Sequence record: OL960580
Origin: Escherichia phage vB_EcoM_SA21RB
Length of the DNA stretch: 64,000 nucleotides
Reading direction: 5' to 3' (one strand)
The translations under genes were made by a program, and so were the position numbers. This document shows, in pieces, positions 15,888 through 18,103 of this stretch. Position 1 is the stretch's first letter. The number at the start of each line of letters is the position of its first letter. The notes under the pieces are model-generated. The model searched no databases and was not told the origin of the DNA. It saw only the letters and a program-made list of their open reading frames with translations.

Positions 15888-16097
15888 TTAAATTACATGA
15901 CTATTTATAATAAATTCTCGCGGAACGTTAAAATACCCAATTTTAGTTAATATAACAACATCACCGTTAATAATTACCGGAGAATAATCTTCTGGAGCAT
16001 TAAATTTCCAATGGGCTCTAATATTATATCCATCAGAACCAAATGCTCGAGTAGCCGGTCTCCCGGCTTTTTGCCACGCGTAGAAATCAAATTTCAT
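15888..16097 (-). CDS. small hypothetical protein
   Basis: 69 aa, ATG start, between soc and gene 56. Confidence 0.45.
   Translation of the reverse strand: MKFDFYAWQKAGRPATRAFGSDGYNIRAHWKFNAPEDYSPVIINGDVVILTKIGYFNVPREFIINSHVI
15902..15909 (-). promoter_or_regulatory. T4 late promoter for soc
   Basis: minus strand reads exactly TATAAATA about 30 nt upstream of the soc ATG. Confidence 0.55.
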
Positions 16098-16288
16098 TTT
16101 GAATGATCTATAATTAATTTTAAAGCTTCTTCACTGACAAAAATTTCGTCAGGACCTTCTATAACTTCAACCATACGAAGTTGATTAGTTAAGAGCTCAC
16201 ACACGAGCTCTTTGTTATAATCTTTAAATAGCTGGTCAATACGTTTCTTATGGGCTTTCTTAAGCTGACGCTTATTTAAACGAGCCAT
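16094..16288 (-). CDS. small hypothetical protein
   Basis: 64 aa, ATG start; overlaps neighbours by a few nt. Confidence 0.45.
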   Translation of the reverse strand: MARLNKRQLKKAHKKRIDQLFKDYNKELVCELLTNQLRMVEVIEGPDEIFVSEEALKLIIDHSK

Positions 16289-16806
16289 TAATAACCTCGG
16301 TCTTGACGAGCGAAGTTTTCAGCATTTTTCAGATAATAAAGTTTAAAGATTTCTTCTGCTGTAAGACCAAGACCTTGGAACATGTTCAGAACGAAATGGA
16401 GAATATCAATCATTTCAAACTTAATTTCTAACTGGTCTTGTGGAGACAAATCAGTAATCAGAGTTTCACGACGTTCACCATGCTGCGACTTCCAAGGTTT
16501 CCATACAGCAGATGCATCTTTTTCACCATTACTCATACCACCAAGAGAAGTCAGAAGTTCACGGAATTCATCGTCAATATAATCTTTCTGATTACGCAAC
16601 CAATCAACAACTTCACCTGCAGTAGCCAAATCATCAGGATGACGGTTATATTCAGGTTTATCTTTAGCTAAACGAATCTGCAGAGATTTCTGCATGTCAA
16701 GCATTACCTGCAGCGGGTCTTTTTCATCACCGAGAATATCCCAATATTCATTTTGAGCTTTATCAGCGCCTTCAATCAGTTGTGAACATTCATTAAAATA
16801 TGCCAT
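16288..16806 (-). CDS. 56: dCTP pyrophosphatase (MazG-like)
   Basis: ORF track extends to 16899; ATG at 16806 with AAGGA SD gives 172 aa MAYFNECSQ...; position between soc and 61. Confidence 0.8.
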   Translation of the reverse strand: MAYFNECSQLIEGADKAQNEYWDILGDEKDPLQVMLDMQKSLQIRLAKDKPEYNRHPDDLATAGEVVDWLRNQKDYIDDEFRELLTSLGGMSNGEKDASAVWKPWKSQHGERRETLITDLSPQDQLEIKFEMIDILHFVLNMFQGLGLTAEEIFKLYYLKNAENFARQDRGY

Positions 16807-16877
16807 TATTTTTCCTTTCAATTCATGGGTTAGTAGATTAATTATACAATAAATATATAAAGCAATAAGGAGGACAT

Positions 16878-17078
16878 ATGGTACAAAAATTAATGGCACT
16901 TGTTGATGCCATAAAAGGTAATAAAAAACGTATAGCTTTTACTATTTCTGCTATGGTAGGAATTTTACTCTGGAACTTTATTTTATCACCCATTGCAATT
17001 GCACATGGTATTAATATTCCAGTAGTTACTCTTGATACATTCGTAGATTTAGCATTTGCTTTAGTTGGGTTAATTTAA
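16878..17078 (+). CDS. plus-strand small hydrophobic membrane protein
   Basis: 66 aa; perfect SD AAGGAGG 5 nt before the ATG; fills the 56-61 gap exactly; two hydrophobic segments. Confidence 0.45.
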   Translation: MVQKLMALVDAIKGNKKRIAFTISAMVGILLWNFILSPIAIAHGINIPVVTLDTFVDLAFALVGLI

Positions 17079-18103
17079 ATCTTAGCATATTTAGATAACC
17101 GCATTTTAGCCATCAACCCCTGTGCAATATTATTTTTCATATATTCCATAATTTGTTCAGGGGTTGCACCTTCCTTTCTAATCATATCATTAACATCTTT
17201 TGATTTCCATGGAGATTTATCCCAAAACATAACTCTTTCTCCTGCATCAACTAATTTAGTCATTCGCTTGATAGTGTCAGGATGACGAGGTTCATTATCT
17301 AAAACCCACGCTCGTCTATCTTTAAATGGAACAACTTCTAGGTCTAATTGACCACCCGTAATAGCTATACCATTTTCAATAAAAAGCGAATCTATAGGTC
17401 CTTCTAGAACATATACATCACCATCTTTAACTCGTTCGACTCCATATATTTTTGTTGCCTCAGGATAAGCTTTAATGGTGATATATTTTTGAGGAGCATC
17501 TTTCTTTAATGCACGTCCTTGAAAAGACTCAGCTTTTCCATTAGCATTATAAATTGGAATAACAAGACGAGGCTCAGGTATTTCCTTTTTATATGTTCCC
17601 GGTGCTATACTATTAACTAATTTAGGCCATTCGGTTGTAAACCAAAGATATTTCCATTTATCCTTTGGAATACAACGAGCTTTTACATATTTTATAATTG
17701 GATGGTCTTCCGCCAGTTTATCTAATCTAACACATGACGGAAGAGATTTAATTATTTTCTTCTCAGGTTGTTTAGGAAGTTCTTTAGGTTTTTCTACTGG
17801 ACGACTTTTACCTTTTTCTTTTCTTATTTCAAAGATATACTCACGATATAAATCGGGTTCAAACTCCTTTAAATATATTCCGATTGGTGCATGATAGTTA
17901 CAGTTATAACAATGAATATTTCCTTCATTATTATCACCATAATACCATCCACGAGCTTTATTTTGGTCGGTTTTTGAATCTCCACAAACCGGGCATCTAA
18001 ACCGCAATTTAAAAGTTGAACTATTATTTACTTGTGTGAATTTAGGTAAATGAGCTAATGCACGGTATGCAAACTCATTATCAATCCAAGGTATTGATGA
18101 CAT
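17075..18103 (-). CDS. 61: DNA primase
   Basis: 342 aa; Zn ribbon CPVCGDS...CYNC and TOPRIM-like core; length matches T4 gp61. Confidence 0.93.
   Translation of the reverse strand: MSSIPWIDNEFAYRALAHLPKFTQVNNSSTFKLRFRCPVCGDSKTDQNKARGWYYGDNNEGNIHCYNCNYHAPIGIYLKEFEPDLYREYIFEIRKEKGKSRPVEKPKELPKQPEKKIIKSLPSCVRLDKLAEDHPIIKYVKARCIPKDKWKYLWFTTEWPKLVNSIAPGTYKKEIPEPRLVIPIYNANGKAESFQGRALKKDAPQKYITIKAYPEATKIYGVERVKDGDVYVLEGPIDSLFIENGIAITGGQLDLEVVPFKDRRAWVLDNEPRHPDTIKRMTKLVDAGERVMFWDKSPWKSKDVNDMIRKEGATPEQIMEYMKNNIAQGLMAKMRLSKYAKI

Follow-up and report, generated by a model that had tools for sequence, protein, structure and literature searches.

A conserved mini-gene converging on the primase gene of T4-like phages encodes a predicted small membrane protein with probable remote similarity to a holin core

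Escherichia phage vB_EcoM_SA21RB (sequence record OL960580) carries a short open reading frame (ORF) between genes 56 and 61, on the strand opposite to both, and the locus raises the question of whether this frame is a gene and, if it is, what its product would do. The analysis covered 64,000 nucleotides of the record, a stretch referred to here as the window. The ORF, found where the preliminary description had placed it, runs from ATG to TAA and encodes a protein of 66 aa, MVQKLMALVDAIKGNKKRIAFTISAMVGILLWNFILSPIAIAHGINIPVVTLDTFVDLAFALVGLI. The 601 bases around it were 97–99% identical to several hundred Tequatrovirus records, which identified the locus as a segment of a T4-type phage. The features of the locus are collected in Table 1.

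Table 1. Features of the mini-gene locus, in window coordinates
Feature	Position	Strand	Evidence
Gene 56 (dCTPase)	16288..16806	-	
Middle-promoter pattern for gene 56, TTGCTTTA-N11-TATAAT (MotA box and -10)	16841..16865	-	1 match versus 0.01 expected
T4 late-promoter-like -10 box, AATAAATA (TATAAATA consensus, A at -13)	16848..16855	+	sequence and conservation
Predicted late transcription start, 17-nt leader	~16861	+	counted from the box at -13 to -6
Shine-Dalgarno sequence AAGGAGG	16867..16873	+	4 nt before ATG; GGAG(G) conserved
Coding sequence of the 66-aa protein (PHROG 2024)	16878..17078	+	PHROG match, open frame in 13 lineages, dN/dS
Hairpin in codons 6–12; minus-strand terminator-like stem-loop and U-run, 160 nt downstream of gene 61	16893..16912	-	folding
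Main transmembrane helix, codons 19–42, with invariant W32, N33, P38 and A40	16932..17003	+	hydropathy, AlphaFold2, invariant columns
C-terminal hydrophobic/amphipathic helix, codons 49–66, with two Asp and nearly invariant G64	17022..17075	+	hydropathy, AlphaFold2
Gene 61 (primase)	17075..18103	-	
TTAA, interlocked stops of the mini-gene (+) and primase gene 61 (-)	17075..17078	.	sequence; overlap kept in relatives

The ORF had been described as filling the gap between genes 56 and 61 exactly, which holds only approximately: the gap measures 268 nt (16807–17074), gene 56 starts at 16806, and the 71 nt upstream of the mini-gene ATG contain promoter-like elements on both strands. The Shine-Dalgarno (SD) sequence was present as described, with a spacer (ACAT) of 4 nt and not of 5 nt. 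At its 3' end the mini-gene was indeed convergent with gene 61 and overlapped the stop of that gene by 4 nt, because the two TAA codons interlock in a TTAA palindrome. The description of the mini-gene as the only convincing plus-strand ORF was also borne out. Of the ATG ORFs that reach 40 aa on the plus strand of the window, 86 in all, it was the sole one with a strong and properly spaced SD; the other GGAGG among these ORFs had a spacing of 13 nt and was located within a minus-strand gene. Length alone was unremarkable, as 35 ATG ORFs on the plus strand of the window reach 60 aa or more, and it is because of its signals and its conservation, not its length, that the mini-gene is more than a chance ORF.

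The dam methyltransferase gene, which T4 has between gene 56 and the mini-gene, is missing from the window (16807–17074 in the window versus 16786–17934 in NC_000866), as is segF between soc and gene 56. In some close relatives (ph0021, FL08 and PsgM02F), a homing endonuclease is inserted nearby.

To assess conservation, we compared the locus with those of other phages. The protein was found by tblastn in 692 phage records, in 685 of which at least 80% of its length was covered, and the annotation in these records was almost always "hypothetical protein". The ORF was present at 80% identity or more in 502 records, and the primase at 80% identity or more in 502 records, compared as totals; the equal counts suggest that close relatives rarely or never lack the ORF. 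Syntenic and convergent homologs were found in nine genera, namely Tequatrovirus, Mosigvirus, Gaprivervirus, Dhakavirus, Moonvirus, Jiaodavirus, Gelderlandvirus, Kanagawavirus and Marfavirus. Homologs outside Tequatrovirus shared 20–55% identity, were located on the plus strand and converged on the 3' end of the primase gene, and the synteny persisted across the nine genera although the DNA was no longer alignable. The neighbors in all T4-like genera examined were the primase gene plus dCTPase, dam or small ORFs. The same 4-nt stop overlap was annotated in T4-type, Mosigvirus, Gaprivervirus, Dhakavirus, Moonvirus, Gelderlandvirus and Marfavirus records, and the ORF of Kanagawavirus PEi20, which was unannotated and was called here, fits the same 4-nt overlap. 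Scans for related loci with single proteins retrieved only nine loci.

Comparison of 13 lineages showed that frame +1 alone was stop-free in all of them. The dN/dS values of divergent pairs (Nei-Gojobori) were 0.16–0.41, with saturated synonymous sites (pS 0.57–0.96). An intact ORF together with its SD in related phages had been proposed as a check on the mini-gene, and both were kept in 13 of 13 lineages, with GGAG(G) located 4–6 nt before the ATG in each. The family comprised two subfamilies, the T4 type and the "MGTLFYQIWKL" type, which were found in tandem in phage VR25 (locus positions 1495–1692 and 1701–1901). In TH40, a relative of VR25, the second copy is only a degraded remnant (locus positions 1700–1810). 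A naive gene-picking pass selected a 51-aa ORF on the minus strand (16838–16993) that overlaps the mini-gene; we rejected it as a real gene, since it is an antisense shadow frame that is interrupted in most lineages.

Synteny in nine genera, a unique open frame and purifying selection all support the earlier view of a real convergent plus-strand gene for a small hydrophobic protein, and we regard the mini-gene as almost certainly genuine. The alternative that it is no gene, and that an AT-rich intergenic stretch left this frame open by chance or as a shadow of signals on the minus strand, could appeal to the 35 plus-strand ORFs of that length that arise by chance in the window, to the minus-strand signals themselves (terminator of gene 61, promoter of gene 56), and to the lack of a gene here in the reference T4 annotation, but it is effectively refuted by the comparative data, in which one frame only stays open in 13 lineages with dN/dS well below 1, synteny spans nine genera with unalignable DNA, two paralogous subfamilies stand in tandem in VR25, and the antisense 51-aa ORF is broken in most lineages.

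The family corresponds to PHROG 2024, which is of unknown function (E 3.9e-31, 107.6 bits, residues 2–66 versus profile positions 1–65 of 65). In the reference T4 records NC_000866 and AF158101, the 309-nt gap between dam and gene 61 (17626–17934) is unannotated, and the ORF and its SD are present at 17738–17938; a recent automatic annotation of T4 calls the ORF. No NCBI or UniProt accession was found for the exact T4 protein sequence in a collection of 15 billion proteins. One UniProt entry, from phage OE5505, is named "Holin", without visible evidence. The gene is already recorded in hundreds of automatic annotations and not in reference T4, and the link to the holin superfamily described below appears to be undocumented in the libraries and papers searched.

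We then considered what the protein would be. Two transmembrane (TM) helices had been predicted in the preliminary description, of which one was strong (approximately residues 19–42, Kyte-Doolittle 19-residue mean 2.0) and the second was uncertain. The C-terminal helix (residues 49–66), which includes two Asp, is short and hydrophobic and could, but need not, cross the membrane. In the family alignment, W32, N33, P38 and A40 were invariant, and G44, L47, P48 and G64 were nearly so. Four to six K/R residues were found in the N-terminal 18–22 residues (five in the window protein) and none or one in the rest of the protein, which suggests that the N-terminus is cytoplasmic. AlphaFold2, run on a 30-sequence alignment, predicted helices at residues 2–12, 16–42 and 52–63 with a mean pLDDT of 74. 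From these features, the protein is very probably located in a membrane. A Pfam scan of the window protein yielded no match to any family, even at E values up to 10, and an NCBIfam scan yielded nothing meaningful. A sequence search of the PDB returned noise only (TM helices of nicotinic receptors at E ~0.1), and a Foldseek search against viral models returned family members only, one of which is labeled "Holin" in UniProt.

Signals upstream of the mini-gene pointed to the time at which it would be expressed. The T4 late box, TATAAATA, extends from -13 to -6 when counted from the start site, and T4-like phages show little conservation of its T at -13 (PMC1524935). In 11 of 13 lineages, the motif ATAAATA preceded the ATG by 12–22 nt, in register with the SD and despite differing flanks and a differing upstream gene, and it has only four plus-strand occurrences in the 64-kb window. 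The complete box read AATAAATA not only in the window but also in Mosigvirus and Dhakavirus; T4 had GATAAATA, Gaprivervirus, Jiaodavirus and PEi20 shared CATAAATA, and TATTAAATA was found in Moon and Gelderlandvirus NP4. Kanagawavirus IME523 and Marfavirus EK29 matched TATAAATA perfectly. The locus agrees with the promoter layout of T4 late genes, in which a TATAAATA-type box ends about 6 nt before the start site and a -35 element is lacking, and it has the A(-13) variant of the box; position -13 deviates from the consensus and is occupied by G in T4 itself, by C in several genera. An A at -13 is found in 9 of 50 listed T4 late promoters, and early and middle T4 transcripts all have the polarity opposite to that of the mini-gene, with only late transcripts running either way (PMC2988020). 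Because of the conserved box, its A(-13) form and the strand polarity of T4 transcripts, we infer a gp55-dependent late transcript, and late expression of the mini-gene is likely. The mRNA leader had no significant structure (z -1.1). In the T4 literature searched (ribosome profiling, small ORFs, start sites and antisense transcription), no transcript, ribosome-profiling or proteomic support was found for the locus. An internal late promoter is also seen at soc, where a perfect TATAAATA is located at 15902–15909 on the minus strand, 30 nt upstream of the start (15871).

The opposite strand carries elements of its own. The middle-promoter pattern of gene 56 was searched for with the consensus and the 12 ± 1 spacing of PMC2988021. 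The late box lies inside the spacer of this middle promoter on the other strand, placing middle and late promoters back to back in the 71-nt gap. The hairpin within the mini-gene has a folding energy of -8.2 kcal/mol (z -2.2) and carries a terminator annotation in Yersinia phage fPS-65. In Klebsiella phage KEN39 (Jiaodavirus), a GC-rich hairpin, AGGGGC-tttg-GCCCCT, is located exactly between the convergent stops (locus positions 1666–1681); it may be a bidirectional 3'-end element for the mini-gene and the primase gene, and it has no U-run and so was not called by the terminator scan.

No plus-strand intrinsic terminator was found within 4 kb downstream of the ORF, and a plus-strand transcript would therefore run antisense into gene 61. 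Such an antisense transcript at the 3' end of gene 61, foreseen in the preliminary description, would be a secondary consequence of expressing the mini-gene. It could instead be the RNA, or the act of transcription, that matters, with convergent late transcription silencing or processing the gene 61 message or shielding it from read-through, and with the peptide incidental. The conserved 4-nt stop overlap and the missing downstream terminator in the window would fit this, and there are T4 sites at which both strands are transcribed, each at its own time (PMC2988020), but selection is purifying on the amino acids while synonymous sites are saturated, the W, N, P and A residues stay invariant across ~25% identity, the strong SD is always kept, and homologs occur in prophages where no primase gene is a neighbor. 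Antisense read-through is moreover not conserved, because the GC-rich hairpin separates the two genes in Jiaodavirus. A function carried by the RNA is thus very improbable.

A profile search of 1.84 billion representative proteins yielded only 21 clusters, the most distant members of which (50–99 aa) came from enterobacterial prophages and siphophage-like contigs. A Phage_lysozyme gene was found 0–2 kb from these distant members, as part of a module that recurs in several rearranged forms; on one such contig, the member, a 180-aa protein, a 109-aa protein and the lysozyme follow in this order, all on one strand. The linkage to lysozyme amounts to roughly one observation, because the prophage elements are related to one another, and it is also loose. 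The module recurring at the distant loci contains a tail-tip gene, a gene of the T4-lysozyme family, unknowns of ~190 aa and ~108 aa, and the homolog of the mini-protein, in varying order. It also contains a protein of 81–92 aa with a TM segment and a coiled coil (weak match to the holin PHROG 1296) and a SegE-like GIY-YIG ORF. We considered the accompanying ~190-aa (180–196) and ~108-aa (106–110) proteins as spanins and rejected them, as they had no TM segment, no lipobox and no PHROG match.

The distant members also provided a link to holins. Several of them gave sub-threshold matches to PF11351 "GTA_holin_3TM" (14.6–16.9 bits versus the gathering cut-off of 24.8 bits) and to PHROG 3427 "holin", always in the C-terminal part of those profiles, and the weak tblastn matches of one member fell on annotated holins. 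PF11351 includes rcc00556, the release holin of RcGTA (PMC3423380, PMC5026251). [quoted passage not shown] We collected eight PF11351 holins, most of them encoded beside endolysins; four were scanned individually, and three of the four passed the Pfam cut-off, with the RC1 protein at 24.2 bits versus 24.8. Conservation among these holins is centered on a C-terminal core, "WRP, TM, turn, Gly-rich helix".

Profile-profile comparisons with hhalign were then performed. A profile built from T4-like members only matched the four holins with a probability of 91% (E 1e-6, score 38.5) and the eight holins with 87% (E 3.6e-6, score 36.0); with the distant members included, the corresponding values were 96% (E 5.2e-9, score 48.8) and 95% (E 2.8e-8, score 45.7). 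Hydrophobic helices readily give false-positive similarities, and the controls argue against that here: the T4-like-only profile scored 11.0 ± 2.5 (maximum 19.6) and 11.7 ± 2.5 (maximum 23.2) against block-shuffled holin alignments, and about 13 against reversed ones (probability 0.4–0.5%, E 0.12–0.14). When the T4-like-only HMM was searched against 1,681 ORFs from all loci, two PF11351 holins were the top matches outside the family (E 2.5e-4 and 0.05), with noise at E > 2. In the alignments, the TM segment of the mini-protein is placed on the WRP-TM segment of the PF11351 holins, and its C-terminal helix on their second hydrophobic segment.

Both the hhalign comparisons and the T4-like-only HMM thus indicate homology to the C-terminal membrane core of PF11351, and the mini-protein is probably a remote homolog of this core. 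By the Pfam criterion it is not a member of PF11351, as the window protein stays below the 24.8-bit gathering cut-off. The N-terminal amphipathic region of PF11351 (positions 1 to ~60) is absent: the alignment starts at template column 63–70, and only 18 residues precede the TM helix of the mini-protein. Adjacency to an endolysin, as in a lysis cassette, was not seen in the T4-like genera examined, and lysozyme genes lie near the distant prophage relatives only.

Taken together, the best explanation of the whole is, on balance, a late, holin-like inner-membrane protein with a role in tuning lysis, although for the lysis-related function taken by itself our support is tentative and short of even. 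The gene stands on the "late" strand, flanked by genes 56 and 61 of the early/middle class. Its transcription by gp55-RNA polymerase would begin late in infection from the (A)ATAAATA box, which precedes the ATG by ~17 nt, and the short leader would supply a strong SD for translation. The protein of 66 aa is predicted to enter the inner membrane and to keep its basic N-terminus (five K/R) in the cytoplasm. In this predicted topology, the invariant motif W-N-x4-P-x-A falls in the single TM helix, which is followed by a turn (G-x3-P) and then by another, short hydrophobic helix. Such a miniature holin-like protein would act at the inner membrane in the late, lytic phase, where it may tune membrane permeabilization or the time at which the T holin is triggered, and would not be an autonomous holin. 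The "membrane effector" of the preliminary description, a vague term, is compatible with this account and can be sharpened to a candidate late-promoter-driven protein resembling a holin core.

Holin T is the essential holin of T4, and T4 t mutants fail to lyse. The mini-protein therefore cannot be a self-sufficient holin, and because holin T is essential, a tuning role is the most likely one. Lysis and lysis inhibition of T4 form a textbook model that is considered genetically complete, with t, rI, rIII, e and the spanins. A bolder version of the lysis reading, which we consider quite unlikely, is that T4 and its relatives have an overlooked second holin-type protein, a stripped-down PF11351 core expressed from a late promoter on the "wrong" strand of the early region, which would co-assemble with or prime the T holin and set the timing of lysis or its inhibition. 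If this were true, it would be a missing component of the T-even lysis clock that is absent from the reference T4 gene list.

The strongest competing explanation, which we nevertheless hold to be the less probable one, is that of a real late membrane protein whose role is unrelated to lysis, for example late-phase exclusion of superinfecting DNA, membrane anchoring of a step of assembly or replication, or protection against host defense; the likeness to holins would then reflect a shared hairpin architecture or very old ancestry. The position of the gene, far from the T4 lysis genes, among genes of DNA metabolism and always abutting the primase gene, would agree with such a role, as would the failed PF11351 threshold with half of the domain missing, yet the profile similarity is specific to the register of the W-N/Y-H...P...G motifs and far above the shuffled and reversed controls. 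To our knowledge, no lysis phenotype maps at this locus, whereas the distant relatives are located near lysozyme genes. For exclusion in particular, the known T4 exclusion proteins, Imm and Sp, are products of early genes, whereas the mini-gene has a late-type box. If the function were unrelated to lysis, the product would be a small accessory membrane protein of an ordinary kind.

A huge group of phages has T4 as its reference genome, and the gene is kept in every close relative examined yet is unannotated in the reference T4 records. At the least, the T4 gene catalogue is corrected. The several hundred "hypothetical proteins" of PHROG 2024 can probably be placed in the wider PF11351 holin superfamily on the strength of the profile comparisons. 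If the mini-gene is expressed and its product active, a late, holin-like protein of this kind would be an extra player in lysis timing or in late membrane physiology.

Comparison with known systems places the mini-protein as follows. It matches PHROG 2024 over the full length, as do 21 of 21 representative sequences of the family; that group has no functional annotation, and its link to PHROG 3427 or the PF11351 holins is not recorded in the libraries searched. Among T4 late genes located in the early region, soc resembles the mini-gene in its short leader and in a TATAAATA-type box near the SD, and differs in being on the same strand as its early neighbors, whereas the mini-gene, which converges on the primase gene, has no other convincing plus-strand gene beside it in the 64 kb. 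The T4 holin T and the antiholins RI and RIII are, like the candidate mini-protein, small, phage-encoded, late proteins of the inner membrane (lysis scheme in PMC7182436). The T4 lysis proteins are encoded at a different genome location, however, and no sequence match links the mini-protein to the T-holin family in the Pfam scan, in which no family at all was matched. Holin T has a large periplasmic domain, whereas the mini-protein would be almost entirely membrane-embedded.

The closest comparison is that with the PF11351 holins, a family formerly named DUF3154 that includes rcc00556 and TeaA of Vibrio phage ICP1. The mini-protein is half their size (61–69 aa versus ~125–170 aa) and lacks both their N-terminal amphipathic half (~60 residues) and their basic C-terminal tail. 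In T4-like phages, the mini-gene is not beside an endolysin gene and co-exists with a different and essential holin, T. Profile-profile probabilities of 87–96% over 43–53 columns nevertheless connect the two, and their architecture agrees. In both, a juncture that is basic or reads W-R/K is joined to a TM helix bearing the motif aromatic-(N/H)-aromatic...P; a turn that includes a conserved P comes next, and then another hydrophobic helix, rich in Gly. Both are phage-encoded, and the late-promoter-like box of the mini-gene would give it the timing expected of a holin.
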